Shown here: in pieces, positions 3 to 28,900 of the stretch
Layout of the letters: every line of letters begins with the position of its first letter
Numbering within the stretch: the first letter of the stretch is position 1
DNA from: Pseudomonadota bacterium
GTDB lineage: Bacteria; Pseudomonadota; Gammaproteobacteria; Nevskiales; Nevskiaceae
Direction of reading: 5' to 3'
NCBI GenBank assembly: GCA_040387055.1
Contig: JAZKEM010000040.1
Span: 6 to 64,005 of the forward strand
DNA: 64,000 bases
Program-made: the position numbers and the translations under genes
The notes under the pieces: model-generated
What the model saw: the letters and a program-made list of their open reading frames with translations, nothing else
Told to the model about the DNA's origin: nothing
Database searches by the model: none

Positions 3-51
3 ACTGGTGCCGAAAAGAGGAATCGAACCTCCGACCTACTGATTACGAATT
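3..51 (-). repeat. att direct-repeat copy 1: 3' portion (anticodon loop to CCA) of a tRNA-Thr(CGU) gene, 5' half absent
   Basis: Reverse complement reads AATTCGTAATCAGTAGGTCGGAGGTTCGATTCCTCTTTTCGGCACCAGT. It shows anticodon loop TTCGTAA (CGT), T-arm GGAGG-TTCGATT-CCTCT, and acceptor 3' strand TTTCGGC plus ACCA. Bases 52-80 cannot form a D-arm or 5' acceptor strand. The identical 49 bp recur at 4515..4563. Confidence 0.85.
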
Positions 52-143
52 GGTCTTTGGTAAAACCGCTGCAATGGAATCAACACCTTGCAACGCTCGC
101 AACAGCCAAAACCAGCTTAAAAAGGCGGCGGAAGATATAACAA

Positions 144-162
144 TGGCTACGTTTTGGCTACG
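144..162 (+). repeat. 19-bp TGGCTACGTTTTGGCTACG (two GGCTACG units 11 bp apart); candidate arm-type integrase site, left arm
   Basis: Exact 19-bp copy of 4439..4457 in the same orientation. It lies 92 bp inside the element from att copy 1. Confidence 0.4.
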
Positions 163-175
163 TACACCGGTAGTT

Positions 176-589
176 TTATTTGCGTGACGAAGTGGATTTT
201 ATTTTCTTACTTTTTTTTGCGGCAACGGCACTAGTGATCGGTGTAAGAGGCTTGGAATTTTTGTGTGCTTCTAATATCTGATTAAGCGCCGAGCCCAATT
301 GTGCATGGGCTGCTAATAAGGACGGTGTGTTATTGGCAAAACTTGCACCGATATTAGCGACGTATTCAATGAGAGCTTGGGTAGGGATAACGATCGTGGC
401 TGCTGCAACACGCTGCTCGGATTCCGTCGACGTTGCCGTAACGACTACACGATGAAAAACAATTTTGCTTATCAGAGGACCCGATAAGGTTTTAGATATT
501 CCGTCCACATAGACTTCGGGCATGTTGTCCGGATATGTGATGTCAAAATTCGCGCCAGGTTCACGCGCTTTTTCTGTCATGCGAGACAT
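176..589 (-). CDS. Hypothetical protein, third gene of the mqsR-mqsA-like operon (137 aa)
   Basis: ORF begins 10 nt after the MqsA-like stop and is preceded by AGGA. No motif recognised. The C-terminus is Lys/Ser-rich. Confidence 0.6.
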   Translation of the reverse strand: MSRMTEKAREPGANFDITYPDNMPEVYVDGISKTLSGPLISKIVFHRVVVTATSTESEQRVAAATIVIPTQALIEYVANIGASFANNTPSLLAAHAQLGSALNQILEAHKNSKPLTPITSAVAAKKSKKIKSTSSRK

Positions 590-599
590 GTGCTGATCC

Positions 600-1199
600 T
601 CAGTTTATTGAAATTGGTTGCGGCACAAAAGGCGTATTCGCATGCACATTCAATAGTTGTAGCAATTGTTCATGGTCTTGTGAGCTTTTCTGTTCATAGA
701 CCTTCGCTGCTGCTTTGACTGGTTGATTGTGCGCAGCCCAAATCAGACTGTATTGCGAGGAAACAATCGTGGGCGTAATTTTTAGAGTAACGCTATATTT
801 TTTTGCTAGCTCTACAGTTGCTTGATCGCTATTAATTACGGCGAACAAAAGACGAGCCGTAGGGCCTGATGGAGTGAGTGCAGCATTCTCATACTTACTG
901 AATGCGGTTGGACCGACGCCCAAAAACATGCCTGCAATGTGTTGGGTAAGGCCCCAGCGATCGCGCCATGCTTTTAGTTCGCTCGGCGATGGCACGCCAA
1001 GGTGTTTATTTTTTGCAGCAATCGCCGCGCGCTTATTAATAGTTGATTGATCAGCGGACAAGATTTCGCTGCCGCACTTATTGCACGTAGAGAAATGTGA
1101 CTCATAGCTCAGAGTGGCACCATCTAGCTCAAAGCTGGCCACTTCAGAGGTCTCAGTTAGATGGCCTGAGCCACACACTGGGCATTCATTACGATTCAT
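600..1199 (-). CDS. mqsA: MqsA-family antitoxin (N-terminal zinc ribbon + XRE-type HTH) with a ~65-aa C-terminal extension
   Basis: CPVCGSG...CNKCGSE zinc-ribbon pairs are followed by LTQHIAGMFLGVGPTAFSKYENAALTPSGPTARLL, which matches the MqsA HTH pattern (LTQ..A..FGGG.NAFSRYE). The gene lies immediately downstream of the MqsR-like gene. It is 199 aa versus ~131 aa for E. coli MqsA. Confidence 0.8.
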   Translation of the reverse strand: MNRNECPVCGSGHLTETSEVASFELDGATLSYESHFSTCNKCGSEILSADQSTINKRAAIAAKNKHLGVPSPSELKAWRDRWGLTQHIAGMFLGVGPTAFSKYENAALTPSGPTARLLFAVINSDQATVELAKKYSVTLKITPTIVSSQYSLIWAAHNQPVKAAAKVYEQKSSQDHEQLLQLLNVHANTPFVPQPISIN

Positions 1200-1206
1200 T
1201 GTTGAA

Positions 1207-1674
1207 TTACGTATTTGATGGATGAAAGGAAAAGATTAATAAAACTTTGCCTGTGAGTGAGACAGCAAATTTTATATACAGATCTATTCGACATGGCGGA
1301 TCGCAGCTCGTATCTAGGTGATTCGGAATGCAGTACCCGTCGCAGGCTGCCCAATTTCCGTGGTTGTCCTCACACCAAGCGGAAGATAAATAATCTTTCT
1401 GTCTAAGCTTTTGGATGGCATTAAAAGTGTCATTAATATCCCACCCCCACTTTGCTAAGTCTTGGCGGCATCCTTTGGTGAATGCATTTAACTTATCGAC
1501 AGTGAAATGTTGTTGAACGACTTCAAGTTTGTAGATTGGCTTTCGCCCGATATTTCTAGAGATTCTCGATGATCCCTTGCCAAAAGCGGGCATCACCGGC
1601 CAGAAATTTACCACAAAGGTAAGTTGTTCTGGTATCGGAGGCGGGGATTTCAGCTTATTGGTCGGTTTGGGCAT
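1207..1674 (-). CDS. mqsR: MqsR-family toxin (ribosome-independent mRNA interferase family); alternative start at 1593
   Basis: The C-terminal ...DLYIKFAVSLTGKVLLIFSFHPS resembles the MqsR ...VYLKITVIHDVLIVSFKEK. A central DLAKWGWDINDTFNAIQKLRQKDY resembles MqsR ELGLDFDGMCNVIIGLSESDFY. Toxin-first gene order is as in mqsRA. Confidence 0.7.
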   Translation of the reverse strand: MPKPTNKLKSPPPIPEQLTFVVNFWPVMPAFGKGSSRISRNIGRKPIYKLEVVQQHFTVDKLNAFTKGCRQDLAKWGWDINDTFNAIQKLRQKDYLSSAWCEDNHGNWAACDGYCIPNHLDTSCDPPCRIDLYIKFAVSLTGKVLLIFSFHPSNT

Positions 1675-1781
1675 CTGATCGGCTATAGCCGGACTCTATC
1701 GATCCGGTCTGGTATTGAAGCGTTACATACTGTTCTTGAGGTTGCTAGTCTGATTTCGAGTTGTCCCTGTAGTCCACAACC

Positions 1782-1850
1782 CGAAGCCCGCGCGGCGGTG
1801 AGGCCGTAAGGAATCACCGTACCGCTGCGCGGGTCGCTTCGTAGAAGCGA
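1782..1850. other. Long imperfect hairpin (1782..1841, ~20 bp stem with bulges); an alternative 7-bp hairpin TCGCTTC-GTA-GAAGCGA (1834..1850) shares its 3' end
   Basis: CGAAGCCCGCGCGGCGGTGA ... TCACCG(TA)CCGC(T)GCGCGGG(TCG)CTTCG pair as read directly. The region is non-coding and lies between the TA operon and rep. Confidence 0.55.
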
Positions 1851-1942
1851 GGCTGTGGGCCCACTGGGGCAACAAACTGTGATTTGACCGCGCATGAGAA
1901 TTTGTGGTTTTATTAAGTCATCGCAAGTAGCGATAACAGCAC

Positions 1943-2078
1943 GCCCGGCACATAGGGCGCAAAATGGCATTAAGCCAAAAATGAGAAGCCCGACATAGGG
2001 CAGTACTGATAGGCACAAAGCCTGAATCTCTAGCCCGAAATAGAAGGGCACTACCCCAAAGCAAAGCCCGATAAGGGA
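1943..2078 (+). repeat. Four iteron-like direct repeats GCCCG-N-ATA-N-AGGG(C)
   Basis: GCCCGGCACATAGGGC (1943..1958), GCCCGACATAGGGC (1988..2001), GCCCGAAATAGAAGGGC (2033..2049) and GCCCGATAAGGGA (2066..2078). Each is internally palindromic (GCCC..GGGC) and they are spaced 33-45 bp apart, upstream of the rep gene. Confidence 0.6.
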
Positions 2079-2198
2079 ACTACGATGGCCTGCCGCCCGT
2101 ATGCGCTGATTTAAGCAGCGATAGCAAGGCATGACGCCTGAAGGAATTTATATGAACCAATCGCCTATCAACGCGATGGAGTCGTAGCGCCTCTGCGT

Positions 2199-2226
2199 GT
2201 GACTCCTCGCAACAATTTGGAGTCAC
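2199..2226 (+). promoter_or_regulatory. Inverted repeat GTGACTCC-N12-GGAGTCAC overlapping the rep ribosome-binding site
   Basis: 8-bp perfect arms at 2199..2206 and 2219..2226. The right arm contains the GGAG 8 nt upstream of the rep ATG (2231). Confidence 0.5.
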
Positions 2227-2230
2227 AGCT

Positions 2231-3232
2231 ATGTCACCGCAAGAACACGCGCAGCCGTGGGAGCACGGCGAGCGCAAGGATGAGCACGCCGCGCACACCA
2301 CGGCGCAGCAGGACCCCCGTTTAGTAACACGGGGGGAAACTCACATAGAGGATGCAAGAGCAATTCCAGCGTTAGCTCATATCGACTGGTTTTCGCTAAC
2401 CGTTACATGCCCCTTCCAAGAAAATAATCTGGAATGGATCACGCCTTTTGTAGAAACCCTATTTGGCATTGCTCGAAGTGAGTGGAGATTTGCTGGATAC
2501 GGTTGGCAGGGATATCGAGAGCGCGTCGATTTAGCGGATTGTGGGCTACTCGCCTTTGGAGGGGAGAGGCAGCGCGGGACAGTCCACATTTCTCTCAATG
2601 CAATGGGATGCTTCCGCGTCAAAGACTGGTGTGCTGTTCGCGTATTTGGTGAAACCTACGAAGCCAGAATTACCCGTATCGATTTAGCGCATGACGATTT
2701 TGATGGTGTGACACTGAACGTCGAACGTGCAATGCAATGGCGACGTGAGGGCGGATTTGATCTCAATGGCAGACCTGCGAACGCTCGTTATATTGATGAC
2801 TTCGATAGTGGTGATGGAAAAACGCTCTACATCGGTAAGCGTCAAAACGGGAAGCTCTGCCGTGTTTACGAAAAAGGACGGCAGCTTGGGGGGCACCTTT
2901 TGCCGCATTGGTGTCGTGCAGAGGTGGAGCTTCGCAACAAGGGCAGGGTGATTCCTTGGGATGTTCTGACTAAGCCCGGCAATTACTTGGCAGGTGCTTA
3001 TCCCTGCTTCGCATATCTGAGTTTGGAGCAATGCAAGCTCAAGACAACACAGAAGCAGCTTGAAGTCAGCTACGCGCACATGGTTCACAACATCCGGAAC
3101 GGCTCTGGGCGTGGGTTGAATGTGATGCTGCAAATGCATCAAGGCGATAGCGGCGGGGTGCTCTTAGACGTCCTTAGAGAGGGCAAGCCAAAACGCTTGG
3201 CATCTATCCCGACGCCTAACCTGAAGCCATGA
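2231..3232 (+). CDS. Rep_trans-family (pT181 RepC / CTXphi RstA type) rolling-circle replication initiator
   Basis: Motifs IDWFSLTV, ITRIDLAHDDF, TLYIGKRQNGKLCRVYEKG and RAEVELRNK match the remembered Rep_trans pattern (R.DlA.D / yiG...s...riYdK / R.E.el). Confidence 0.75.
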   Translation: MSPQEHAQPWEHGERKDEHAAHTTAQQDPRLVTRGETHIEDARAIPALAHIDWFSLTVTCPFQENNLEWITPFVETLFGIARSEWRFAGYGWQGYRERVDLADCGLLAFGGERQRGTVHISLNAMGCFRVKDWCAVRVFGETYEARITRIDLAHDDFDGVTLNVERAMQWRREGGFDLNGRPANARYIDDFDSGDGKTLYIGKRQNGKLCRVYEKGRQLGGHLLPHWCRAEVELRNKGRVIPWDVLTKPGNYLAGAYPCFAYLSLEQCKLKTTQKQLEVSYAHMVHNIRNGSGRGLNVMLQMHQGDSGGVLLDVLREGKPKRLASIPTPNLKP

Positions 3233-3591
3233 GCACGCTCACCCTGCAACAGGCTGCGGCGCTGCTCTTGATTCACCAAGAAACACTGGCCGAACGGGCA
3301 AGGCTGCGCCTTATTCCCGGCGCCAAAATTGGTAAGAGATGGGTGTTCGTGGAGGCAGACTTACTGGCCTATCTGCGCGCACAATACGAACCGCGAGCGT
3401 TGCAGGGTGACAACCCGGAGAAATCTACATGTCACTCTACAAACGAAAGGACTCATCGGTATGGTGGGTCAAGCTCTCACACAAGGGTCGCCGCTTGCAG
3501 GAAAGCACTGGGACTTCCGATAAACGAAAGGCTCAAGAATTCCACGACAAGCGAAAATCTGAACTGTGGGAACAAGAACGACTCGGTGTAA
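3229..3591 (+). CDS. Excisionase/AlpA-like helix-turn-helix protein
   Basis: LTLQQAAALLLIHQETLAERARLRLIPGAKIGKRWVFVEADLLAYL fits the excisionase-family HTH pattern (..iGr.w.f....l..wl). ATGA overlap with the rep stop. The 3' 163 nt overlap the integrase ORF in another frame. Confidence 0.6.
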   Translation: MSTLTLQQAAALLLIHQETLAERARLRLIPGAKIGKRWVFVEADLLAYLRAQYEPRALQGDNPEKSTCHSTNERTHRYGGSSSHTRVAACRKALGLPINERLKNSTTSENLNCGNKNDSV

Positions 3592-4472
3592 AGCCAAGTC
3601 ATATGTGGGAAGAAGCGGTACTGCGATATCTGGACGAGAGCGGTCACAAGGCAAGTATCAAGGATGACAAGCTGCACCTTCGTTGGTTGCAGAAGCACCT
3701 TGAATCTTCCGACCTAGCATCGATCAATCGGGACGTCGTAGACCGTCTGACACGAATAGCGAAAGCTGAACGTGTAAGCAATGCAACAGTGAATCGGCGT
3801 CTAGCGGTGTTACGGGCGATTCTTCGGCGAGCGGCGTTCGATTGGGAATGGATGGATCGGTGTCCCAAAGTTCGCCTCCTGCCAGAAGCAAAAGGCCGTG
3901 TGCGCTTTCTGACGCCGCCTGAGGCTCAACGGCTGCTTAAAGAGTTGCCGGAACATCTCAGGGCGATGGCAGGTTTTTCACTTTGTACGGGATTGCGACA
4001 GGCGAACGTCAAAGGCTTGAAGTGGTCACAGGTGGATATGGAGCGGGGTTTTGCTTGGGTCGCGGCACACGAAGCCAAGGCAGGGAAGGGAATTGCGGTT
4101 CCTCTCAATGCCGACGCTTTAAAGGTGCTCCGATCAGTGGAAGGCAAACACGCCGACTACGTATTCACCTATCAGGGCAAGCCGATCCGACAGGTCGGCA
4201 CCAAAGCATGGCGCGGGGCGTTAAAGCGAGCGGAGATTGAGAATTTTCGCTGGCACGACCTTCGACACACTTGGGCCAGCTGGCATGTACAAAGTGGCAC
4301 GCCGACGTATGCGCTTCAGGAGTTAGGCGGGTGGGCGAGTACAGAGATGGTGAGGCGGTACGCTCATCTTTCTGCAAACCATCTGGCGAACTACGCAGAG
4401 CGTTTTGCACAAAATGCACCACTGCCTTTTGCAGATAGTGGCTACGTTTTGGCTACGGTGCCTTCGGGATAA
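3429..4472 (+). CDS. int: Tyrosine integrase (phage-integrase family) with N-terminal arm-binding type domain
   Basis: N-terminus MSLYKRKDSSVWWVKLSHKGRRLQESTGTSDKRKA is typical of this family. The C-terminus carries WHDLRHTWASW ... GGWASTEMVRRYAHL (HxxR ... Y). The gene lies adjacent to att copy 2. Confidence 0.9.
   Translation: MSLYKRKDSSVWWVKLSHKGRRLQESTGTSDKRKAQEFHDKRKSELWEQERLGVKPSHMWEEAVLRYLDESGHKASIKDDKLHLRWLQKHLESSDLASINRDVVDRLTRIAKAERVSNATVNRRLAVLRAILRRAAFDWEWMDRCPKVRLLPEAKGRVRFLTPPEAQRLLKELPEHLRAMAGFSLCTGLRQANVKGLKWSQVDMERGFAWVAAHEAKAGKGIAVPLNADALKVLRSVEGKHADYVFTYQGKPIRQVGTKAWRGALKRAEIENFRWHDLRHTWASWHVQSGTPTYALQELGGWASTEMVRRYAHLSANHLANYAERFAQNAPLPFADSGYVLATVPSG
4439..4457 (+). repeat. 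Second copy of TGGCTACGTTTTGGCTACG; candidate arm-type site inside the int 3' end
   Basis: Identical to 144..162. It lies 57 bp left of att copy 2, so in a circularised element the two copies would flank the core. Confidence 0.4.
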
Positions 4473-4479
4473 TAAAAAA

Positions 4480-4511
4480 GGCCTGCATGTTTTCGCATGC
4501 AAGCCTTTGTT
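4480..4511 (+). terminator. Rho-independent terminator after int
   Basis: GGCCTGCATG-TTTTCG-CATGCAAGCC forms a 10-position stem with 1 mismatch, followed by TTTGTT. Confidence 0.6.
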
Positions 4512-4514
4512 AAT

Positions 4515-4563
4515 ACTGGTGCCGAAAAGAGGAATCGAACCTCCGACCTACTGATTACGAATT
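4515..4563 (-). repeat. att direct-repeat copy 2 (tRNA-Thr 3' fragment), shared junction of the two elements
   Basis: 49 bp identical to 3..51. The flanking bases at 4564-4595 do not complete a tRNA. Confidence 0.85.
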
Positions 4564-4690
4564 TGGCTGTACAAGTATCAGCAAAGCTTTGATGATAAAT
4601 AATAAACGGTCTGGAACGGTTCTACAATTTACCCATTACTTCGTTTTGTTTTGCGTGGGGAGAATCTGCTTCTTTTAGCGATTGTAGACC

Positions 4691-5680
4691 TCATTTTGTC
4701 GGGTTAATTTTCTCGCGCTTGTTGTTCGTAAGGTAGATTTCCGTTGTCTTGATTGAAGCGTGTCCCGCGAACCCTTGAGCTGAGTACGCGCCACCCTGTT
4801 CTTCGATGTCATTGATCGCCGTGCGGCGCAGATCGTTGTAGGTCAGCCCGGTGATTTTCTGGGCCTTCAAGTGCTTCTTCCACATCGTCTGAAATCCGTC
4901 CTTGGTGTACGGCTCGCCTGTTCGCGTCGGGAACAGATACTCGCTGCTGGGCTTGCGCCGGAGCAGTTTCGCCTTGGCGACGCAAGCGCGCAGTGCAGGG
5001 GTCCAGACAAACAGCATCTTCTTGCCGGTGCTGTTCTTCGTTTTGCTTGGTTCGACCTCAATGCCGGCGTCGGTAATCTGCGACAGCTTCATCAGTCGGA
5101 TGTCGTGCTGACGGGCACCGATGAGTAGATCGAGTTCGGCCATGAGCGGAATCGGGCCGGGGCCCTTTAGGACTTCAGCTCTTTCGTGATCGGTGGCCAC
5201 GCGCTTACGTTTGCCAGTGCGCGGCTTCTTTACGCCGGTGCAGGGATTGGCAAGGTCAGTGAGTCCAGCACTGCGGCAGGCATTCCACGCAGCCGACAGA
5301 AAGGCGATGTGCCTGGCACCTGCGACGGTGCCATTGAACACAACCTGCATGAACTGCGCGATGTGCTTGGGCCGCACTTCCGGCAGGGTGAACCCTTCAA
5401 ATTCCTTTTTGAGCACCGCCGCACTGCGGTTGTATTCGACCATCGTGGCCGCCGATAGCTTGCCGCAACGGGACAGATACCAAGTCAACAACTTGGCCAC
5501 GGTCTGCGTGTCGTTACCGATGCCCTCAATGTCGCGGTACTGCACCAGCGCGGCAAGGTAGTCGTTCCCCAGCGGAATGTAGGGGCGTTTGCCGTCCTTG
5601 TATCCGACCCAATAGTAGCGGCCCTTTTTGAGCTGCATCTTGGGTGGCAAGTGCTTGTGCTTGGTCTTGTGTCTTCCCAT
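4691..5680 (-). CDS. int: Tyrosine integrase of the prophage
   Basis: C-terminal YNDLRRTAIND ... GHASIKTTEIYL (catalytic Arg and Tyr region). It is the first gene next to att copy 2 and shows no obvious similarity to the 3429..4472 integrase outside these motifs. Confidence 0.85.
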   Translation of the reverse strand: MGRHKTKHKHLPPKMQLKKGRYYWVGYKDGKRPYIPLGNDYLAALVQYRDIEGIGNDTQTVAKLLTWYLSRCGKLSAATMVEYNRSAAVLKKEFEGFTLPEVRPKHIAQFMQVVFNGTVAGARHIAFLSAAWNACRSAGLTDLANPCTGVKKPRTGKRKRVATDHERAEVLKGPGPIPLMAELDLLIGARQHDIRLMKLSQITDAGIEVEPSKTKNSTGKKMLFVWTPALRACVAKAKLLRRKPSSEYLFPTRTGEPYTKDGFQTMWKKHLKAQKITGLTYNDLRRTAINDIEEQGGAYSAQGFAGHASIKTTEIYLTNNKREKINPTK

Positions 5681-5681
5681 G

Positions 5682-5882
5682 TCAGGCAGCCAATGATTTC
5701 AGGTGACGTTCGCGTGGCTTTTGCTTTCCAATCATGCGCTGTTCAGCCTCGGCGCGCATGACCTTTGGGCGACCAGTCATGCCAACTTCGAATTTCCAGC
5801 CGTGGTCAGTCAGCCAGCGAATCTGGGCCGCGGCTTGGCGCCGTTCGGTCAGCTCAGCAATTTCGTCACGAGTTAAAAACAT
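5682..5882 (-). CDS. DUF4224-like small DNA-binding protein (excisionase position)
   Basis: FLTRDEIAELTERRQAAAQIRWLTDHGWKFEVGMTGRPKV fits the remembered DUF4224 pattern. The stop is 1 nt from the int start. Confidence 0.55.
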   Translation of the reverse strand: MFLTRDEIAELTERRQAAAQIRWLTDHGWKFEVGMTGRPKVMRAEAEQRMIGKQKPRERHLKSLAA

Positions 5883-5884
5883 GG

Positions 5885-6388
5885 TTACTCCATGGCTCGA
5901 AGTGCACAGCTCTCAAGCTCATCAGCCGTGGCAATCATCGCTGCCGGTTCATCATCAGGGCTGGTGCGGTCGGGGATCTCGCTGATGTTCTGGATGAAGC
6001 GATCCCACCATTCGGGCAGCTTTGGGTCATTCATCGCGGCTACTGAGGATTTCTCGGTAGATGGCTTATCGCAAGTGCATGGGCGACAGAACCAATCTTC
6101 ACATTGATACGTCCCTTCAACTGCCGAGGAATCCTCGGTAGCTCGCCCCATTTTGTTAGCGTCAACAAAATGGTCTGGCTCACCCTTCACCCCGCCATCA
6201 GCAGCGGGGGAGGCTGACTTTTCGGCAGTATCGGCAAGCTCTAGCAGCCAATTAACCCATTCTTGGCGCTGCCAGAAACACGGCTCATCGTCGCCTTCAA
6301 TTTTGATTTGATGGGCGCGGCCTCGGTTAATAGACCTGACTGCGCTAATCAGATCAGCAATAGCTTCATCCGGTAGTGTTTTGCTCAT
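5885..6388 (-). CDS. Hypothetical acidic protein (167 aa)
   Basis: Long ORF whose start overlaps the upstream stop (ATGA). No motif recognised. Confidence 0.6.
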   Translation of the reverse strand: MSKTLPDEAIADLISAVRSINRGRAHQIKIEGDDEPCFWQRQEWVNWLLELADTAEKSASPAADGGVKGEPDHFVDANKMGRATEDSSAVEGTYQCEDWFCRPCTCDKPSTEKSSVAAMNDPKLPEWWDRFIQNISEIPDRTSPDDEPAAMIATADELESCALRAME

Positions 6389-12322: not shown

Positions 12323-13204
12323 TTAAAACTGGTTAAGAAGATCGGCCAACAGTCGCGACAGCTCGCCAGTCATCAAGGCGAAGTCAGCTTCGAATTGCTC
12401 TTCAGGGTTTTGCGACTTATCGCTTTCGCGGTTCTTGTCGATGTCGAGGAAGCGAATCTTCTTGAGCTGCAGATGGCCATCGAGAACAAACGAAATGCGC
12501 TCGTTCCAAATCAGCCCCAACTTGGTCGCGGTCTTTCCGTCGCTGATGTGCTTGGCTACGTCCTTGCCGCCAAGGTCGTGGCGCACGTAGCGCACGGTGG
12601 GCTTGGATTCATCGGCGCCGCGCAGCTCACAGTCCTGATCGATGATGAAACGGCTGGGCGTGTCGTTACCTGCGAGCCAGGCGCTCATCACGGTTACTGG
12701 CGACAGCTTTGTTTCTGGCAGGCTGATCGGAAACTCGCCGAGCACATTGCGCAGTTGCTCAGTCACTTCTTCTGCGCGGCCTACTGAAGCGGTGTCAACC
12801 ACTAGCCAGCCGTCTGCAGGTGAAAGCCATGCGCGAGTAGAACGGCGTTGCGAGAAAGCGCGTGGCAACAACTCAGCCATGATCTGCTCTTTCAGTTCGC
12901 GCATCTGCTTCTTGCCGACCTTGTAGCCCTGCTGCTTTTCGAGTTTCAAAGCACGATCCAAGGCGGTCTGATTGATCACGGCAGAGGGCAGAATCTTTTG
13001 CTCAACGCCAAGCGCAATCAGAAGTTGCTTGCCATGCGAAGCGACCAACTGCTGGTCACCGCGCGGAGACACCCAGCCACGGCTTGTGGTGCTCATTCCG
13101 CTGCAGGGTTGCAGAGGAAACTTGGCGAGAATTTCTTCCAGCGTTCCGGCTGGCATGGCCCAGCCGACAGGCAGGCGATAAATAGTGAGATTTCGGAAGA
13201 ACAT
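12323..13204 (-). CDS. rdgC: Recombination-associated protein RdgC
   Basis: MFFRNLTIYRL..., EQKILPSAVINQ, LLPRAFS and FEADFALMTGELSRLLADL are colinear with E. coli RdgC (MLWFKNLMVYRL..., EEKILPSPVIKQ, LLPRAFS, FDADFILMTGELAALIQNL). Confidence 0.92.
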   Translation of the reverse strand: MFFRNLTIYRLPVGWAMPAGTLEEILAKFPLQPCSGMSTTSRGWVSPRGDQQLVASHGKQLLIALGVEQKILPSAVINQTALDRALKLEKQQGYKVGKKQMRELKEQIMAELLPRAFSQRRSTRAWLSPADGWLVVDTASVGRAEEVTEQLRNVLGEFPISLPETKLSPVTVMSAWLAGNDTPSRFIIDQDCELRGADESKPTVRYVRHDLGGKDVAKHISDGKTATKLGLIWNERISFVLDGHLQLKKIRFLDIDKNRESDKSQNPEEQFEADFALMTGELSRLLADLLNQF

Positions 13205-13259: not shown

Positions 13260-13772
13260 TTAATCAAAAGGGATGTCGTCATCCTCGAAGCCATTGGGAT
13301 CCGTTGGCGGCGGGGCTGTCGATTGCGCTCGACTTGGGTCGCGTCCGGTTGCAGATGCGTAACCCGTTGCAGTTGCGCCTTGCTCGCGAGTGCGGCCGGG
13401 TTGATAACCACCACGCGACTCACCTTCTGCTGGCTTGCCATCAAGCATCTGCATGTCGTCCACCACGATTTCAGTGGTGAAACGATCCTTGCCGGTGTCT
13501 TTGTCTTGCCACTTACGGGTGCGAAGCTTTCCTTCGATGAAAATCTTGCTGCCTTTCTTCAAGAATTGGCTTGCGATTTCTGCCAGCTTTCGACGGAAAA
13601 CGATGTTGTGCCACTCGGTGTGTTCCTTGTTCTCACCCGAGGCTTTGTCCTTCCACGTTTCGCTCGTGGCGAGCGTGGTGTTAGCCACGGCATCACCATT
13701 CGGAAAGTATCGAAGCTCGATTTCTTTTCCGAGGTTGCCGATCAGTAGAACCTTGTTGATTCCGCGCGACAT
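13260..13772 (-). CDS. ssb: Single-stranded DNA-binding protein
   Basis: [43 protein letters not shown]... is followed by a Gly/Pro-rich tail ending DDDIPF. Confidence 0.95.
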
Positions 13773-15499
13773 TAGGCGGCCACCTGCTGTTTAACATTCA
13801 GCATCAAATGCTCTGCGAGCTTCAGACAGATCAACGGAAAGTCAGTGGCTCTGTAGAGCTTCGCGGACTTATCAATTTCGACCGGGTTGAAACCGATTGA
13901 CGCTAGGCCATCCGAAGTAATCAGCAATGGCGCTATGCGTGCATTGATTTCGCCGAGCTTCATCTTGGCCAGCACTTGCGCACCGCTGGCCACCTGCTGA
14001 CGCGGCGCGCTTGTTGGCGCGGATGTGGCCACTGCCGGCGCGCTGACAGTTTCGGCCTTAGATTCTGGTTGTACTTCGCTCTGCACTGCGACTGGAGCAG
14101 GAGTCGCTTCTTCAGTGGCGCGACGTGCTTCCTCTGCTACGGCATCGAGACGAGCCTGTTCTTCTTTGGCTGTTTGCTCATCGCGAATGCGCTGCTGTTC
14201 TGTCTCGTGCGCAGTGATGCGGCTTTTGATCAGCAACACCAGGTAATCGTTTTCCTTCATCACCAACTGTTGAGCGTCGGCAAACAGGAAAGCATGGTCC
14301 TTGGCCAGTGTGCGCAGTGAGCCCAGATTGACTTCGATCTTTTCCGCAGCCGTGTTGGCTTCGATCTTCGCGCGTGCTAGTTCTGTGTCGACGGCATCCT
14401 GCATAGTCGAAAAGAGCTTCAGGCCTTTTATCGCACCGCCAAAGTCGACAATGACGTCCGGAAGCTTGATCTTTCCGAGACGCGTGTTGATCGCAGCGAT
14501 GTGCTCGTCGAACGCATTCTTACCGCCTTGCACGATTTCAAGACGACGTTCGTCCTTGCGCTTTGTGACGAGCTTGTCCAAGGCGAGGCGTTTTGTGCGA
14601 GCCTCTTCTTTGATTTCATCAATCGCGCGGAACAGTTCGTCGATTGTTTTCGTCTGACCCAGCGCATTCTCCTTGGCCAGATCCAGCTTTTCTTCGATGC
14701 CTTTGCACCAAGTAACGGTTTTTGCGGCATCAGCAAATTCCTGATCTGTATTCAGATCAGTGCTGATATTCTTGAACACAGCTATGGCTTGCTCTTTGAA
14801 CTCAGCCAGATTGCTCGACTGCACCATGCCCATCACGCGGATATCCAGCGCGGGAAGTGCTTCAGGTGCACGGCCTACTGCTTCAATCGTGACCGCAGCA
14901 GGCTTGTAGTTTTCGCGATCAATGCGGAATTGAACCCAGCCAGCTTCGATACGTTGCACCCAAGCTGGGACTGGCAGCACTTCCATGCGAGCGCAGTTTT
15001 CTTCCGTTCCATCAGATACCGTGAAGATGACTTTCTTGGCGCCAGTGACGTGCATGATCTGTTGGCACTGAGGCTGATACTCTTCAGGCAGAACTCCGCT
15101 CATCACCGAATCAAACAGTTCTTTGCTGATCTGCTTGTGCTCGAAAGCGATTTCGCCATCCATGGTGAGGCCGTCGCACGAAGCCGACAGCAAGCCAAAT
15201 GAGTAGGTAGCCGGATAAAGGTCTTGACCGATGATGCCTTCGAGAATCGCGCGAGCCTTTGCTTCAACTTCGTGGCCGTAGTCCAGAATGTTCTTCTGAA
15301 CCCAATCACTGAACTCCTTGGCGAGACCAGTCGCCTTCATCTTCAACAGCTCAGTGCGAGTGGTCTTCGTCGAAATGCCAAGCATCGCAGCGGCTTCGCT
15401 GGCACCGTCATGCACAAGACGGAAGCGGTGCCATTCATCACTGCCTTGGACAAGGTTATGAACCTGACGAGCAATAAGATTTTTTACGGGTGCGTTCAT
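13772..15499 (-). CDS. YqaJ-type (lambda Exo-like) recombination exonuclease fused to a ~350-aa coiled-coil C-terminal region
   Basis: N-terminus [26 protein letters not shown] and ...[17 protein letters not shown] (D..E.K) match the YqaJ pattern. The rest is long and helical with an Ala/Pro-rich linker. The gene lies directly downstream of recT. Confidence 0.8.
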
Positions 15500-16530
15500 G
15501 CTGCTTGCTCCACCTTGATGTCTTTAAGGATTTGCTTCTGATCGGTGCTGAAGGTGGATCTGGTTTCAGCCATGGCGACAACTTCGTCGGCTGTTTTCTT
15601 GCCTTCCTTGATCAGCTTTTCCCACATCGGCAGACGGCTTTTGAATTCGTCTTCGGTGTACTGAGGCTTGGCTTCTTCTTTCTTGCTTGTGCCTGCGTCG
15701 GCACCTGCACCGGTGGTGTCGCCATCGCCTTCCGTTTCGGTTAGCGGTTCTGCTTCTGGCTCAATGACGTTGACGAAGTCGCCTTCGATAACTGCGCGCT
15801 TGCCTTGATCAACTGCGTCAGTCACGGCGATAGCCTTGGCCAACTCGACCGACATAGGCAGTGTTTTGCAGATACGGCGAATCATGGTTTTCTTGGCCAT
15901 TTCCTCGTAATCAGTGTCCCAAGGAGTTTCTTTTTTGTAGTCAGCTTCCTTGTTCTTGCTGTTCTTTTTTTCGTTGCGGAGGCGAATTTTTTCGACCTCT
16001 TCAATCGTCATCCAGCCAAACTGGTACGAGCCTTCTTTGAATTGGGCGACGGCGTAGACGCAGATCGGTTCCCCGCGCTCACCGTCGATCTTTGGCTTGT
16101 GCTTCAGTGAAGGATTGACGCCAAGCTCAATCTCAAAGAAGTCTTTGTCGTAGACAATTTCAGCGTTAATGCTAGTAACGTCTCCACCGCGACGTGCGAG
16201 AGAAATCAATCCGCGATAGCCAGGCATGAACTGGCATTCCATTACGCTGTGCCAATCATTGCCGCGCTTGAAACTGCGTTTGAATGGGATGAGATATGCC
16301 TGACCCATCAGTCCCGGCTCTAGGCCCAACTGTGCAGACTGGACGATGGCTGCGATCACTGACATTGGATCGCACTCGGCCAGCTTGGGGGTGGTGCGGA
16401 AGCAGGTGAGGGAGACGCGCAACATGCGGTCTACATCCATGTGCTTCGGCAATGCCAAAGCAATCTGCGACTTCATTTTGTCGAGTAGCAGTGGAAATTC
16501 TTTTGCGTTTGTTGCGAGGTTGTTGCTCAT
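15496..16530 (-). CDS. recT: RecT-family single-strand annealing protein
   Basis: SVIAAIVQSAQLGLEPGLMGQAYLIPF and the following segments match the RecT pattern. ATGA overlap with the exonuclease gene. Confidence 0.9.
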   Translation of the reverse strand: MSNNLATNAKEFPLLLDKMKSQIALALPKHMDVDRMLRVSLTCFRTTPKLAECDPMSVIAAIVQSAQLGLEPGLMGQAYLIPFKRSFKRGNDWHSVMECQFMPGYRGLISLARRGGDVTSINAEIVYDKDFFEIELGVNPSLKHKPKIDGERGEPICVYAVAQFKEGSYQFGWMTIEEVEKIRLRNEKKNSKNKEADYKKETPWDTDYEEMAKKTMIRRICKTLPMSVELAKAIAVTDAVDQGKRAVIEGDFVNVIEPEAEPLTETEGDGDTTGAGADAGTSKKEEAKPQYTEDEFKSRLPMWEKLIKEGKKTADEVVAMAETRSTFSTDQKQILKDIKVEQAA

Positions 16531-17567: not shown

Positions 17568-18311
17568 TTAAACCTTCACAAAATTAATTGCAATTACCAC
17601 TCTACCGGCCACACGAAATCCTGACCGCAGCGGGTCTTGAATCTCGATGTCTTTAAACTTTTTGTTGTCCGAAATCATTAGGTACGCGTCCTTCTTGCCT
17701 GGCACTCGCTGAAATCGCTTGATGTAGAGTTCATCATTGTTTTCGAGGCAATACACATCATCGACCTTAAGGTCGTACACGCCGCAATCGATTAACAGCG
17801 GATCTCCATCATCAAAAGTTGGTCGCATGGATCCTCCCATGCCCGTGACGATGCAGAGATTTTCTGGTGCCGTGATTTTTACGCCACGTGATCGGCAAAG
17901 TTCAGGGACATTTAGCTCGATGTAGTCGACGATTTGCGCTGAATCTAGAATACGTACACCGTTCCCCATACTGGCCTTTATATCCAGTTTAGGAATGCGG
18001 TAAAAGCCTTCACTTTGCCGCTGATTTGTAATCGCTGCAGCGTTTTTTGTCTGCGGCCCATCGTGATCAGTTTCACCCGAATCTAGCTCGGGCTTTTCAA
18101 GCATTCGCCCACGGCCGTTCGCAAGCCAGTCTGCATTTACTCCGAGTGCGCGAGCTGCGGCAATCGCGGTATTTGCTTTGAGCGACTTCGTTTTTCCGGA
18201 CAGCCAATCGTTGACGGACGGAGGTTTTACTTTGACCAAGCGAGCCAAGTCAGCCTGATCAATATTGGCGTGAGCTAGAGCAGCAGCAACACGTTCAGCG
18301 AGATTTCTCAT
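17568..18311 (-). CDS. cI: CI-like repressor (XRE HTH + S24 LexA-type autopeptidase domain)
   Basis: HTH QADLARLVKVKPPSVNDWLSGKT. S24 motifs GGSMRPT (Ser) and YIKRF (Lys). The start MRNLAERV at 18311 avoids running across the operators. Confidence 0.9.
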   Translation of the reverse strand: MRNLAERVAAALAHANIDQADLARLVKVKPPSVNDWLSGKTKSLKANTAIAAARALGVNADWLANGRGRMLEKPELDSGETDHDGPQTKNAAAITNQRQSEGFYRIPKLDIKASMGNGVRILDSAQIVDYIELNVPELCRSRGVKITAPENLCIVTGMGGSMRPTFDDGDPLLIDCGVYDLKVDDVYCLENNDELYIKRFQRVPGKKDAYLMISDNKKFKDIEIQDPLRSGFRVAGRVVIAINFVKV

Positions 18312-18334
18312 ATTTGTCCAGCCTACGGCGGGGA

Positions 18335-18377
18335 TTATTAGGTGTGCCTTGACTTGTTTATAAGGTGTACCTAATAA
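18335..18377 (+). promoter_or_regulatory. OR/PR region: palindromic operator plus half-operator overlapping a sigma70-type promoter for cro
   Basis: TTATTAGGTGTGCC-TTGACT-TGTTTATAAGGTGTACC-TAATAA. The -35 is at 18349..18354, the spacer is 17 bp, and the -10 is at 18372..18377. Operator TTATAAGG-TGTA-CCTAATAA is at 18358..18377. The architecture is the same as at PL. Confidence 0.75.
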
Positions 18378-18384
18378 TGCGGGC

Positions 18385-18564
18385 ATGACAGACGCAGAAA
18401 TCATTGAACGGCTCGGCGGCACTAACGAAGTTGCACGTCTATGTGAAGTGCGGCCGCCATCAGTATCCGAATGGAAATCAAAGGGAATCCCCAGATCTCG
18501 TCGGATGTATCTGAAGCTCCTGAAGCCAGCGGCATTCAGAAAGCCTCGCAGTAAGGCTGCCTAA
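18385..18564 (+). CDS. cro: Cro/YdaS-like small HTH regulator (59 aa, below ORF-track cutoff)
   Basis: Hand translation gives MTDAEIIERLGGTNEVARLCEVRPPSVSEWKSKGIPRSRRMYLKLLKPAAFRKPRSKAA. It is divergent from cI across the operators, and its ATG is 7 nt after the -10 element with no SD. Confidence 0.7.
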   Translation: MTDAEIIERLGGTNEVARLCEVRPPSVSEWKSKGIPRSRRMYLKLLKPAAFRKPRSKAA

Positions 18565-22967: not shown

Positions 22968-25900
22968 CTATTGATCCTTGAGCGCGTCGGAAACCTCGGC
23001 GCGCATTCCCTTTGGTGCTGACTTGATGAAGCGCTGAGCGCGCGTCATCGTCATCTGCTTCACGCGCTGCTGAATCGATGAAGGTGCGATCAGGATCCGT
23101 GAGTCTGGATTCTTAGCATTCCAGCGCATCAACTTCGCACGGGCTTTATTCACCTTGTCTTGATCGTGCTCGAAAATACCCTGCGCCCATTCCTCGGCAA
23201 TTTCAGATGAAGTGGCACGGTTGAGATCGATATCTTGGCGCTTTATTTCCACTGCGCGAGATTCAACCGCAACCTTTCTCGGGTTGAATCCGATGGCCTT
23301 CGACACGGCATCTGCCGTAGTAGTATCAATGACGCGGCGGCCCTTGTCGTCTCTTGCATATCCAAGTTGAGCCATCTGGTAGCCATTGATTGCGTTCTGC
23401 AAAGCGTTCGGCATTGCAGATTTCACAGCGCCGCTGATGTCGCCTGACAAAAGATCCGCTGCGGACTTTCCGTAATTCTTTGCAAGACCACCGATGGGGC
23501 CAACTGCCTCTGCAAATTCGCGGCCCTTGTCGTTCTGAGATTTCAAGCCAATGCCGGTGCCGGGAATCAAATTTCCCATACCCATGCGCCCAGCCACATC
23601 GATAGGCAGGAATGTCGATACGCCGCTTTGTGCAAATTCAGTAGCGCCTTGGCCAAAAATCGGTGTGATAACCGCACTAATAGCTTTGTTGCGCTCTTCC
23701 TTTGTGTTCCATGACAGGCCAAGGCCTTGAGCAATGGTATCGATCAAATCGTCGAGATCTTCCGCGCCTGGGAATCCGTTTACCCCTGCAGAGAGAACCA
23801 ACACACCAAGAGTCATCAACTGCTGTTTGCGCGGCAAGCGCTTCACGAACTCAAGGTAGCTGATGCTGTATTGCTTGAAGGTAAACACTGTTGCGCCGAC
23901 AGCACCGCGCGCCCAATTCGGACGGTTGCCGCGGTTGTAGACGCCTTGAGTTTCGTGCACCGCCTTGGCTGCAAAGTCGTAGGCATCCGTTGCCCTTGCC
24001 GCAGCAAGTTGCTCGCCTGAGAGTTTGCGCCCAATTTGATATGCGGCCGCAAATGTCGAGCGACGGTTGAACTGCTCAGCCAGCGAGAACATGCGGCCCC
24101 AAATAAACAGGCCCTTATTGCCGAGTTCGCGCGCCTTGTCGAATTTCCCCCAATCGCCTTCGGAGCGCATTGACGCAGCCGTCAGTTCGTGGATCTGGTG
24201 TGGCTCTACTGTGCCGTCCTTGATGGCTCTCTGCATTGCCGCGCGCAGGCCTGCATCACTGATAGCTTCTGGGCGCTGCATCGCGATCTTCATGCCGGCG
24301 GCAAGTTCCTTCGCTGCGGATCCTGCGCCCCACTGAGATAGATACGGCATCGACATCGTCACCGGCTGGGTCATGTTGACCATTGCTGATGCTACAGATC
24401 CGCCGAGGAAGTTGAAGAACAGGAACGAGCGGAGGCCCTGCGCTTCTTCGCGCGGATTCTGAATGTACTGAATCAAGCGACCGGCTTGTTTCTGCACGTC
24501 ACCTTTCTCTTTAGGAATGGCTTCCCACGCTTTGGTCATCTCGCCCATGTGCAAGCCCGACGATGCTGCGCGAGCATTGCTGGTGATGAACTGCGCGAGC
24601 ACGCGCTTCAAGTCTGGGTTGTAACCTTCGATGCCTTTGCGATGAATCAAGCGCTTCAGCGCCGACCGGTTGTTCTTGGCCAGCTTCAAGTACTGCTGGA
24701 ACGCATCATCTTTATCCATGCCGGTGACGCCAGCAAAGAGTTCGAGTGTTTCGGGCGTCATGCCCTTGAACATCTGATATGTCTCATCGTTCACAACGCC
24801 AGATTTAATCAGCGCGTCGGGGTACTGTTCCTGCATCAGACGTTCCATGCGATTTCGATCTGCGGCATTTTCAAACATGCTGAAGTAGACCGTCTCGCCA
24901 GCTTTGTCAGTGACGTGAAGCGAGTATTCGCCAAAGCGCATGAGCGGAGCGTAGCCCTCTGAAATTAGCTGGTTCACACGGCCAATCTTCTGATCAAAAT
25001 CATCAGCCAGGGCAGGAGCGGAATTAACGAGCAAATTACGTGCAGCGCGCATGGATCCCGCCGCCGCAGCTTCACGTGCTACCGCATCAGAGATGTTCGG
25101 GCGTGCGAGTTTCACCATGTCGGTGATGGCTACATCGCTCAAACTCTTATTGATTGCAGTCCGCGCTTGCTGATATAGGCGGATCTGCTTCGGGTTCAGA
25201 TTGAAGCGATCGCGCAGCTCCGATTCGGTGTAGTGCTTTTGATCTTCAAGAGTTCCGCGAAAGATTGCATCAGCAACAGGCTTCAGCTCTCGCGGGCTTG
25301 CACCAGATTTGGTTAGATCTGAAAAGCTTTCGAATTTCGGCAAGATGTCAGAAGCAAGGTCAGCGGCACCGAGCGCAAAGCGAGATACATCGGTTAGATA
25401 TTCCTGCGTGCGGTTGTAGACGCGTCCGTAATCTTTGTCGACTTGGGCTTTGTGGTACTGAGTACCAACTGTTTCATGCCACCAGCGATTGAAGGTTCGA
25501 CGATTGTCGAGCATGTCGCCAATGCGTTGGCGAATGTCTCCGATGGCTTCTGGTGCTCGCGCATCGGCGAGCGAGTACATCGGTTCGTCTTTACCTAGAA
25601 CTTGCCCGCTTTCTTGTCCGCTTCGATCAGCGCTTTGATCGTCTTCGAGGCCGAGCGTGCGTCGGCCCTCAGCGATTCGATCTCGGACGGCGTCAAGAGA
25701 CGGGGCAGCCGCGAGGTGCCCGGCTTCGCCTTGGGTGAGTTGATCGATTCCGAAACCGAAGTTTTCATGGAGATAATCATCCAATTTAGCGCCATGTTTG
25801 GCAAGCAATTTGTCACGCATCGCAGGGCGCAAAGTGATATCTGCCGTGCTCTCGTGACCGGTCAGCGCAGAGGCAAGGATGACGTGACCGCCATTGGCTT

Positions 25901-28900
25901 CGATGTGTCCGCGCAGATTGGCCAGCGTGCCGCCAATAGTCTGCGTGTCGTCGACAATCAGGTAGTTGCCGCCTTTCTTTACATCACCGTCAAAGGCTGG
26001 CTGGCTGGCGATTCGCTCATACGCGTTGGCATTTGTGTGAAATGCGCGAACCGATTGCATGATGTTTTCATCTACCGGAAGTCCAAGCTTTTGGCCCAGC
26101 AGTTCAGCGTAAGCACGCGGCAGCATATTGCGTCCGGTGGCCTCTACGGATTGAACCGGGACAACCGTGGGGCTCGAGTCACCGAGAGCTTTGCTCAGCT
26201 CTTCGAGCTTCTTGTCATCGAGTAGGTCATGCGCTACTCGGTATGCAGCGGCTGGGTCTCCAGCTTTGGCGGCGACATAATCGGCATGCTTCTGTGCCGC
26301 GCCAAGTGGCTGCATGCGGTGCACCGGTGGAAAGCCGTTCCAGTCCGCGCGGTCGGAACCGTACTTGCCCTTCAGACTGAAATCGATGCGCGAATCATTT
26401 GGATTGAACGTGCCACGATTGCCCGAGGCGGATTTGATTTGCTCTGAACCTTGCACCAAGAATACTCGGCCACCACCTTTGGTTAAGCTGTATTCGATCC
26501 CATGAGTTTTCCCGCTGCCGATGGTTTCTCTAGTACGACCGTTGTAGAGTCGGTCTATCTGCAAGTAAACCGGAATAACATTCTTTCCGTAGACTTTCGC
26601 TTCTTCTGGCGACGACGTGAAATAAAATCCTTTGCCGAGACGCCCCTCGCGCTGGCGTTTTTTATCGAACGCATCAAAATCACTGTCAGTCCCGTGATAC
26701 ACGATCAGCGGTTCGCCATTGGCGTCAATCACTTTGGAAGCACCAAACCATTTCTTAAAGGCAGGTGTATCGGTCTGCTTAATGTTCGATTCTTTTAAAC
26801 TCTGACCGGCCTCAGCGGTTGCAGCGTTCATTCCTGCCATGGCCTTGCGCAGGCTGGCCGAAACCATTGCGCGCAGATCGTTGTGATCCAGCTTGATGAA
26901 CTTGAAGCCCTTCGACCAAAGGAATTGGCGGATGGCCTGCATGACGCGCTGGAACCATGGCGCGCTAGAGGCTTCTGCTGATTCCCCGACATGCGCAATG
27001 ACTTCGCGTACAAAACGGTCACTGCCAGGTGTGATGTTCTTGTAGTTCCGCTCCACGCGATTCCATGCGCTTCTAACAATCGGATTGCCAGCAGCGCGCA
27101 TGCGACGGACATCGTTAAGCAGCTTGCTGTACTGGTCGGCGCCAAGCATTTGCTTCAGCCCGTAGTGCTCGCCAATTTCGTGCAGAACAATGGAGATAGC
27201 TTCTGACGCTTCGATGTTATCGGCCACGATATAGGCGGCTTTTCCATCGTACAGACCTCTCACGCGGCCAGCGATTTGGCTGGACATCTTTGCGCGCATG
27301 GTCGACGGTAAATCATCTGCAGACTGCACGATGTTCAGGATGCCGCGATCCATCAGCGATTTAACGCCAGCGGCTCCAAGCTTGTCGTTTAGTGCCTTTA
27401 GAACTTCTGCGGTGGTGGACTGCTGCACCGTGTTGTACGACGGCGACATTCTGAATTCAGGAGTTTCGCCAGCGGGTTTTTCAATGACGACCATGCGTGC
27501 ATTGACGCTGGTATTTACCGGAAGTGTAGGGTCTTCAAACGTGCCTTCCGCCAACTTCTCATCGGTGCCGCCAACAGATTCAAGCCACTCGCGGAACTCG
27601 CGGGCCTGCTTGTTGTCACGGAAGAATGCACCTTCGCCCATGATGGCGATCAGGCGGCCTTCCGGCTTGAGCAAGTCATAAGCATGGCGGACGTGCTGCA
27701 TGTCACGGCCATCGCTGAAAGGGGGATTCATGATGATGCGATCGTACTGACCAGCGGTTTCCGGCTTCAGGTCCATCGTGTCGGAGCCGACCACGTTGAA
27801 TCCCTTGGCTTCCAGCAGTTCGCGGCGATCACCAGACATCTCGACGACGTCAGGTTCAACACCTGCAGCGCGGATGCGGTCAGCGATGTGACCCATGCCG
27901 GCCGATGGCTCCAGCACGCGCATGCCTGGCTCAATGCCAGCGGCATCAACCATTTCATCGGCGGTGGTTTCCGGAGTTGGGAAGAAGTCGAGCCCGTCAT
28001 TGCGGCGCCCGACCATTGCCCGTTCCATCTGCTTGATTTTGTCTGGCTCTGCAGCCTGCTCGCGCAGGCCAATGAACTCACGCAAGGCGCTGCGGTATTC
28101 GGCTGGGGTTTCGATTCCCATGCGTGCAAGCGTTTTCAGCTTGTCGCTCGCGGATACAAACTGCCATGGTGCCGGGACGTCTTTGCGTCCCTTCAGCTTG
28201 GTAACAATCTCATTGCCAATTTCGTGCACAAGCGATATCCGCTTGTCGCCATCACCTTTCCAAATGCCGCGGCCAATGGCTTCGCTTGGGCTCATCACGA
28301 TGGCATTCTTTCCACGGCCCAGCGGCATCACAATCGCTTTGCCTAAAAGGCCGGAGCGACGGATAGCTGTCTCTGCAGCTTCACGGGTTGGAATGACAGC
28401 AGGTTTGCCGTCATTGATCGTGTACGGCGATACCTTCTCCCAATTCGCTTTAGCGAACTTGGTGTATTCGTCCGACACGTCATCGGCAACCTTCAACAGT
28501 CGCGTGCTGATCAACTTCAGCCCGTCGACGTCTTCCAACTGTCGTGCAAGGCTTGCAAGGTCAGAGCGATACATCGTGAAGCTGGGGAAGGTGGCGAACT
28601 CAACCGTATCGGATGTTGCTGGCTCGCCCTTGTGCTTGAGCTGTTCGCCGTAGCTGTCGTACTTAGCGCGCAGCTCGTCATCTTTCGCGGTGTTGATCGT
28701 GGTCGTCAGCAGTTCAACTTGAGTTTTCTGACGCACGCGGTCAAGGAACTTTGCTTTGCCGGATTCGACGGCCTTGGCAATGTTGCGCATGGTCTTGGCC
28801 AGCGCCTTGCTTGCATTCGCGTTTGCTTCTGCTCGCGAAGCCATGGCGGCGCGGCGATTGGTGTTTGTCTTGCGATCTGCATTGAGTGATTCGTCTGCGC

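Follow-up and report, generated by a model that had tools for sequence, protein, structure and literature searches.

Toxin–antitoxin–chaperone (TAC) systems combine a toxin and a third gene with an antitoxin whose C-terminal extension is a disordered chaperone addiction domain (ChAD) (PMC9519451; bioRxiv 2024.02.24.581848; PMC5105189). MqsRAC, described in Escherichia coli C496_10 and Vibrio cholerae RC385, has MqsR as its toxin, MqsA-ChAD as its antitoxin, and a SecB-like protein as its chaperone (PMC9519451, PMC5105189), and phage defence by this system has been established experimentally against T2 (PMC9519451). Here we describe a 1.5-kb operon found in a 64,000-nucleotide (nt) stretch of DNA, referred to below as the window (contig JAZKEM010000040.1 of assembly GCA_040387055.1, from a pseudomonadotal bacterium of the family Nevskiaceae). 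It encodes a toxin–antitoxin (TA) pair of the MqsR/MqsA type followed by a third gene belonging to an unannotated, non-SecB family. We lean, with a little more conviction than doubt, towards reading the operon as a TAC-like module in which the non-SecB third protein would bind and stabilise a disordered tail of the antitoxin.

The chaperone of HigBAC and CmdTAC is a SecB tetramer that binds aromatic short linear motifs of the ChAD (Mets et al. bioRxiv 2024.02.24.581848; PMC11618068) as well as nascent phage tail or capsid proteins (bioRxiv 2024.02.24.581848; PMC11618068). SecB-type TACs are triggered when nascent phage structural proteins compete with the ChAD, so that the SecB-like chaperone doubles as a phage sensor (bioRxiv 2024.02.24.581848). 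Full-text searches of literature open without subscription returned no report of a TAC built on anything other than SecB, the TAC chaperone being defined there as SecB-like. Two further systems frame the comparison. The MqsR/MqsA pair of E. coli K-12, in which the toxin gene also comes first, has a toxin of 98 aa and an antitoxin of 131 aa, with neither an antitoxin tail nor a third gene. In three-component TA systems, among them PasABC of plasmid pTF-FC2, a type II TA pair is modulated by an additional small protein; PasC is not known to accompany a tail-bearing antitoxin, and the window operon showed no sequence relationship to PasABC.

The operon shares with MqsRAC a toxin-first gene order, the MqsR and MqsA families, a tightly linked small third gene, and residence on a mobile element. 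As an earlier reading of the same DNA (the original prediction) had proposed, the toxin gene precedes the antitoxin gene, here with a 7-nt spacer, in the order expected of MqsR/MqsA; the third gene follows on the same strand, which completes the three-gene layout of a TAC (Table 1). A gap of 10 nt separates the antitoxin stop codon (602-600) from the ATG of the third open reading frame (ORF; at 589), whose own Shine-Dalgarno sequence, likewise anticipated, overlaps the TGA stop and lies 7 nt ahead of the ATG. The short gap and this overlap suggest that expression is coupled. The operon was also correctly said to be richer in A and T than its surroundings, with a G+C content of 45.5% compared with 53.5% in the remainder of the 4.5-kb element that carries it and 54.7% in the remainder of the window, which suggests that it was acquired separately as cargo.

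The TA core belongs to the MqsR/MqsA family. The antitoxin matches TIGR03830 over residues 6-125 (E 6.6e-26, 90.6 bits, cutoff 61.8) and the Pfam family MqsA_antitoxin (E 8.9e-12), and aligns with E. coli MqsA in the Protein Data Bank (PDB 3GN5, a 133-residue chain; E 8e-5, query residues 5-120, chain residues 4-121). Its core, from residue 1 to about 135, comprises a two-CxxC zinc ribbon and a helix-turn-helix (HTH) domain, as in the MqsA/YgiT family and in the K-12 pair (PDB 3GN5, 3O9X), and C6, C9, C39, and C42 are invariant in our antitoxin alignment (A5). The toxin matches the MqsR (RelE-like RNase) domain, Pfam PF15723 MqsR_toxin, over residues 45-151 (E 1.3e-7, 32.3 bits, gathering cutoff 26.2) and is divergent in sequence; a phmmer search of the PDB with the toxin matched no MqsR structure. 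It represents a long form of the family, with an N-terminal extension of ~44 aa (residues 1-44, window positions 1543-1674) that is lacking in the 98-aa E. coli MqsR and that distinguishes it from the MqsRAC toxins, which are shorter. About 40 aa of this extension are conserved across a clade of related toxins (loci L002, L007, L008, L011, and L001), with the motif LT.VVN[FY]WP...IG..PIYKL. The extension is common to loci that carry the new third-gene family and loci that carry a SecB-like third gene.

Beyond its core, the antitoxin carries a C-terminal tail. Since the alignment with 3GN5 stops at chain residue 121, the protein has some 65-70 residues more than the 131-aa MqsA, in agreement with the ~65 extra residues reported originally. 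In an AlphaFold2 (AF2) model built with an 11-sequence alignment, the predicted local distance difference test score (pLDDT), averaged over 10-residue blocks, is 83-97 at residues 1-130 and 89 at residues 131-140, and falls below 50 at residues 146-195; the tail, rich in S, Q, V, L, and A, is thus disordered according to the model, and shows no alignment with its counterparts in related antitoxins. Disordered by prediction, C-terminal, and poorly conserved between systems, it fits the published description of ChADs and is a candidate chaperone-addiction-like element. Its position, from residue ~136 to 199, may be compared with that of the ChAD in the V. cholerae MqsA of MqsRAC (residues 136-176), both being non-conserved C-terminal extensions. 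Many tail-bearing antitoxins (those of L007, L011, L001, L023, L005, L002, and L008) end in similar short motifs (VSYH, VAYH, VRSH, YAIH, ENFH, EITF, and EVTF), which are seen with either type of third gene. This motif could be a degron, or could reflect a constraint imposed by a following gene whose start overlaps it.

The third protein (137 aa) had been described as free of recognisable motifs, and it indeed matched nothing in Pfam, NCBIfam, or PADLOC; its best hits among PHROGs and PDB sequences, at E ~0.1-0.3, were insignificant. A word-indexed homologue search matched the protein only to itself and, as an alignment, yielded almost nothing. A family was revealed solely by an exhaustive HMMER scan, in which phmmer, run against 1.84 billion representative proteins, recovered 144 representative homologues at E<=1e-3 (E 1e-13 to 1e-3), nearly all of them 105-145 aa long and the closest ~39% identical to the window protein. 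With so many representatives, the ORF is not a chance one. An alignment of 87 family sequences (A1) gave the consensus FDL..D..PE.Y.DG.S....G.P.SK..FH.V...E.R.....L.IPT..L.E...N, and the motifs that define the family (PE.Y.DG.S, G.P.SK..FH, and E.R.....L.IPT..L.E), followed by a long helix, are all present in the window protein. Those members that bear names in databases, from Burkholderia, Paraburkholderia, Robbsia, and Bradyrhizobium, are without exception called 'hypothetical protein'; sequence searching added members in Cupriavidus and on a plasmid of Thiothrix. Among the models of Pfam, NCBIfam, and PADLOC, none matched more than one of the 87 sequences, and none of the stray matches was to SecB or to CmdC, as the SecB-like protein of CmdTAC is called. 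With the window protein as query, tblastn matched no plasmid or phage sequence, and P0020 likewise matched nothing among phages; a search with a 12-sequence sub-alignment located a single genome locus and a single metagenome locus, and nothing viral; and single-protein scans of viral contigs produced one marginal fragment.

With alignment A1, AF2 predicted the structure of the third protein confidently (mean pLDDT 91.3, predicted template modelling score 0.64). The predicted fold consists of five beta-strands (residues 4-10, 13-19, 30-36, 40-50, and 59-69) leading into a single 42-residue helix (70-111), after which the window protein has a Lys-rich C-terminal tail. It thereby differs from the SecB partner of HigBAC and CmdTAC. 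The original prediction had proposed that the 137-aa protein be examined for a SecB-like or other chaperone fold; Foldseek returned no significant match. Against the PDB, the best hit (E 0.9) was to the head and coiled coil of SAS-6, and against BFVD the best hit had E 0.02 with a template modelling (TM) score <0.3 for that match, TM reaching at most 0.39 among the top 50. The likeness to the SAS-6 head and coiled coil, with a structure E of 0.9 and a profile E of 0.13, was judged insufficient.

The closest described systems would lead one to expect a canonical MqsRAC here, with a highly diverged SecB-like chaperone as its third protein. The operon layout and the antitoxin tail are identical in kind to those of MqsRAC, and an antiparallel sheet followed by a long helix loosely recalls SecB. 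We nevertheless consider this explanation very improbable, as the third protein is unlike SecB by every comparison made, in keeping with what had been noted from its sequence. The PADLOC model PD-T4-9_C (CmdC) went unmatched at E<=0.01 in all 87 family members scanned, the window protein included, and SecB does not appear among the 25 Pfam families listed at E<=1 for these members, each of which was matched by one member. Profile–profile comparison of the family with SecB-like third genes by hhalign gave a probability of 0.1%, and SecB is absent from the top 50 Foldseek matches in the PDB. The same models do recognise SecB-like third genes in sister loci: at L005, L002, and L008 the gene product matches Pfam SecB at E 7e-4 to 2e-3, with much or most of the profile covered, and a PADLOC control scan of the L005 and L002 proteins matched both to PD-T4-9_C/CmdC (E 1.4e-8 and 6e-4). 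The third family is non-SecB. The TAC proposal of the original prediction therefore holds in part: the layout, the tailed antitoxin, and the linked third gene stand, and membership of the described MqsRAC or TAC systems does not. Lacking a SecB-like chaperone (SecB^TA), the operon is not to be filed as MqsRAC or as a TAC in the strict sense. The anti-phage report on E. coli MqsRAC that the prediction mentioned as coming from a functional screen does exist (PMC9519451), the system having been tested in cloned form as a follow-up and not recovered from the selection itself.

Strong evidence linking the third gene to the pair comes from synteny. In 11 of the 12 loci examined, the family member occupies the third position, behind a toxin and a tail-bearing HTH antitoxin, and in these 11 it overlaps the antitoxin gene or lies no more than 10 nt from it. 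The original prediction had staked its case on conservation of the third gene beside extended MqsA homologues, and such neighbours were found: besides the window, long-form MqsR and MqsA accompany the family at L007, L011, and L001 (where the toxin is present, though its gene was left uncalled). At L012 (Cupriavidus pauculus), L014-L017, L018 (Burkholderia sp.), L019 (Robbsia betulipollinis), L020/L021, and L023 (plasmid pTunz2 of Thiothrix unzii), the family follows instead a Gp49/HigB-like toxin and an extended antitoxin of the HigA or Xre/HTH_37 type (165-226 aa). Tails of 75-107 aa occur on all antitoxins adjoining members of the family, and these do not align with one another. In pairing with two different TA families, the new family resembles the SecB/ChAD unit, which is modular in a similar way, and the occurrence of one tail-and-partner unit on both HigB/Gp49- and MqsR-type warheads recalls HigBAC and CmdTAC.

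These loci also bear on whether the third ORF might be a passenger gene or a spurious ORF behind an ordinary MqsRA pair. It is unannotated in every library, and its closest homologue is only ~39% identical, as might be expected of such an ORF; the explanation is contradicted by the synteny, the position overlapping or abutting antitoxin genes being kept in 11 loci of different bacteria. Because toxin and antitoxin families differ between loci, the sample does not represent one recently spread element. The conserved motifs of the 144 representatives, the confident fold prediction, and an antitoxin tail that is unusual for an ordinary MqsRA pair point the same way, and we regard a passenger or spurious ORF as scarcely credible.

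Two side observations concern the surroundings of the family. At L014-L017, on metagenome-assembled contigs (~2100-6300), the module has an ERF recombinase and P63C for neighbours in a phage-like region and directly adjoins further TA-like pairs (Gp49 + HTH, and BrnA-like); the region looks like a TA or defence hotspot. At L025, where a DUF7689 gene lies downstream, a distant family member and a 158-aa ORF overlap, and the family may have a second context besides TA operons.

Among the closest MqsRA relatives of the window, the new family alternates with SecB. These relatives form two groups, one carrying the new family and the other a SecB-like third gene (L002, L008, L005, and probably L010). 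Toxin identity to the window is 35-39% in both groups (L007, L011, and L001 in the former, L002 and L008 in the latter), the VVN[FY]WP motif included, the L005 toxin being more distant at 30%; identity of the antitoxin core is 52-53% in the new-family group compared with 41-46% in the SecB-like group. Similarly related toxins and cores paired with different third genes are a hallmark of non-orthologous replacement, here affecting the third gene of a single TA lineage.

The third family probably does the same job as a SecB-type chaperone, and the best reading is that SecB has been replaced by an unrelated tail-binding stabiliser or sensor. In the mechanism we propose, an MqsR-family RNase toxin would be neutralised by an MqsA-family antitoxin, whose disordered ~64-aa tail would render it unstable or prone to aggregation. 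The 137-aa protein, with its beta-sheet head and long helix and probably oligomeric, would bind this tail and keep the antitoxin functional. If the third protein were drawn away by titration, as a nascent phage structural protein might do, or if the 4.5-kb element were lost, the antitoxin would fail and the MqsR RNase, once released, would arrest translation. Infection would then be aborted, or the element would be stabilised. We infer from the architecture of the operon that the third protein binds the tail and stabilises the antitoxin, and likewise the trigger and the defence phenotype, as well as the chaperone and defence roles themselves.

Several observations weigh against the TAC-like reading. 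The predicted fold of the third protein matches no known chaperone in the Foldseek searches. The toxin is a divergent MqsR recognised by the Pfam HMM (hidden Markov model) only, and its activity is putative. The sampled contexts are few, and their selection was partly by long contigs. The one exception to the synteny, at L024 (3001-3369, Bradyrhizobium elkanii), is a distant member located 336 nt after an unannotated 494-aa protein; lying outside a TA context, it implies that the family need not always serve antitoxins. Moreover, the window sequence derives from a watershed metagenome and is present in one run only.

Certain observations would suit a genuine third component acting in another mode, such as a neutralisation enhancer that, like PasC, works on the complex of toxin and antitoxin, an operon co-repressor, a protease adaptor, or a sensor that acts elsewhere. 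Synteny indicates functional linkage only and says nothing of the mode of action; the Lys-rich C-terminal tail, present in the window protein and several relatives, could bind nucleic acid; and one family member stands outside a TA context. Library scans of the third protein and its family, however, detected no DNA-binding domain, and another mode of action would leave two features unexplained, namely the alternation with SecB-like chaperones in sister loci and the long disordered tails, which are present on every partnered antitoxin and absent from stand-alone relatives. We think such a component unlikely, while taking it seriously.

The operon is the only cargo of a small integrative element of 4.5 kb (57-4514), which also encodes a Rep_trans-type initiator, an HTH_17/AlpA-like ORF, and an integrase, and is bounded by 54-nt repeats (Table 1). 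These attachment site (att)-like repeats share an exact 32-mer, found twice compared with 0 occurrences expected by chance, and resemble the part of a tRNA that holds the T-arm and the 3' acceptor end. Across the window, neither ARAGORN nor Rfam detected an intact tRNA; the candidate at the att repeat (4515-4595) lacks a D-arm, folds no better than shuffled sequences, and was rejected. An exact 19-nt repeat, TGGCTACGTTTTGGCTACG, that is, TGGCTACG twice, occurs at 144-162 and 4439-4457, just inside each end of the element, from where the copies would flank the att core in an excised circle; these may be arm-type binding sites of the integrase. Directly to the right, a second tyrosine integrase and a series of prophage genes indicate that the small element and a prophage are integrated in tandem at a shared att site, a satellite-like arrangement. 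The prophage region includes, on the minus strand, a giant 4369-aa ORF (22968-36077) and a 1447-aa ORF (39504-43847). A megablast search of the first 12 kb of the window against phages found no match.

Table 1. Features of the operon, the small integrative element, and the adjoining prophage (window coordinates)
Feature	Coordinates	Strand	Evidence or remark
Toxin gene, 155 aa	1674..1207	minus	ORF; Pfam PF15723 (MqsR_toxin)
Antitoxin gene, 199 aa	1199..600	minus	ORF; TIGR03830, Pfam MqsA_antitoxin, PDB 3GN5
Antitoxin C-terminal tail, residues ~136-199, 64 aa	603..794	minus	AF2 pLDDT, composition (predicted)
Shine-Dalgarno sequence GAGGA of third gene	597..601	minus	read from sequence
Third gene, 137 aa, unannotated family	589..176	minus	homologues, alignment A1, AF2
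Left 54-nt direct repeat, tRNA 3'-end-like	3..56		repeat search, 96% identity with 4515-4568
Right 54-nt att-like repeat	4515..4568		between small-element integrase and prophage integrase
Rep_trans-type replication initiator	2231..3232	plus	Pfam PF02486 E 3e-25
HTH_17 (AlpA/excisionase-like) ORF	3229..3591	plus	Pfam PF12728 E 1.3e-8
Tyrosine integrase of small element	3429..4472	plus	Pfam PF00589 E 7e-33
Second tyrosine integrase	4691-5680	minus	abuts right att copy
RdgC	12323-13204		prophage gene
YqaJ-like exonuclease	13772-15499		prophage gene
RecT	15496-16530		prophage gene
CI-like HTH + S24 repressor	17568-18422		prophage gene

This sole-cargo, prophage-adjacent context fits an element-stabilising or an anti-phage role. 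TA modules classically stabilise mobile elements, and an operon that is the sole cargo of a minimal element (integrase, excisionase-like gene, and replication initiator) between 54-nt repeats could be mainly an addiction cassette, securing the 4.5-kb element through post-segregational killing and not acting against phage. We hold this to be possible, at rather less than even weight. SecB-type TACs, MqsRAC included, defend against phage (PMC9519451), the element lies in tandem with a prophage, and other loci of the family are situated in phage-like or TA-rich regions. The two roles are, in addition, not exclusive, and the distinction between them concerns the biological role of the module and not its mechanism.

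Beyond the TAC-like reading of this operon, we tentatively propose, as something only a little short of an even prospect, that with the 137-aa protein begins a second class of antitoxin-addiction chaperones and phage sensors, unrelated in structure to SecB, which it would have displaced from its operon slot. With about the same reserve, members of this class, which might be termed 'TAC type 2', would be pictured as oligomers with a beta-sheet head and a helical stalk that bind the disordered tails of MqsA- and HigA-type antitoxins. If an unrelated family does fill the slot of SecB across MqsRA and HigBA warheads, chaperone addiction would be convergent and modular and not specific to SecB; defence finders keyed on SecB or CmdC models would miss such systems, as PADLOC, which matched nothing here, illustrates; and a small new fold without structural relatives would gain a testable function. 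Were the second class real, chaperone addiction would have evolved at least twice, and anti-phage TA systems would have a new sensor module.

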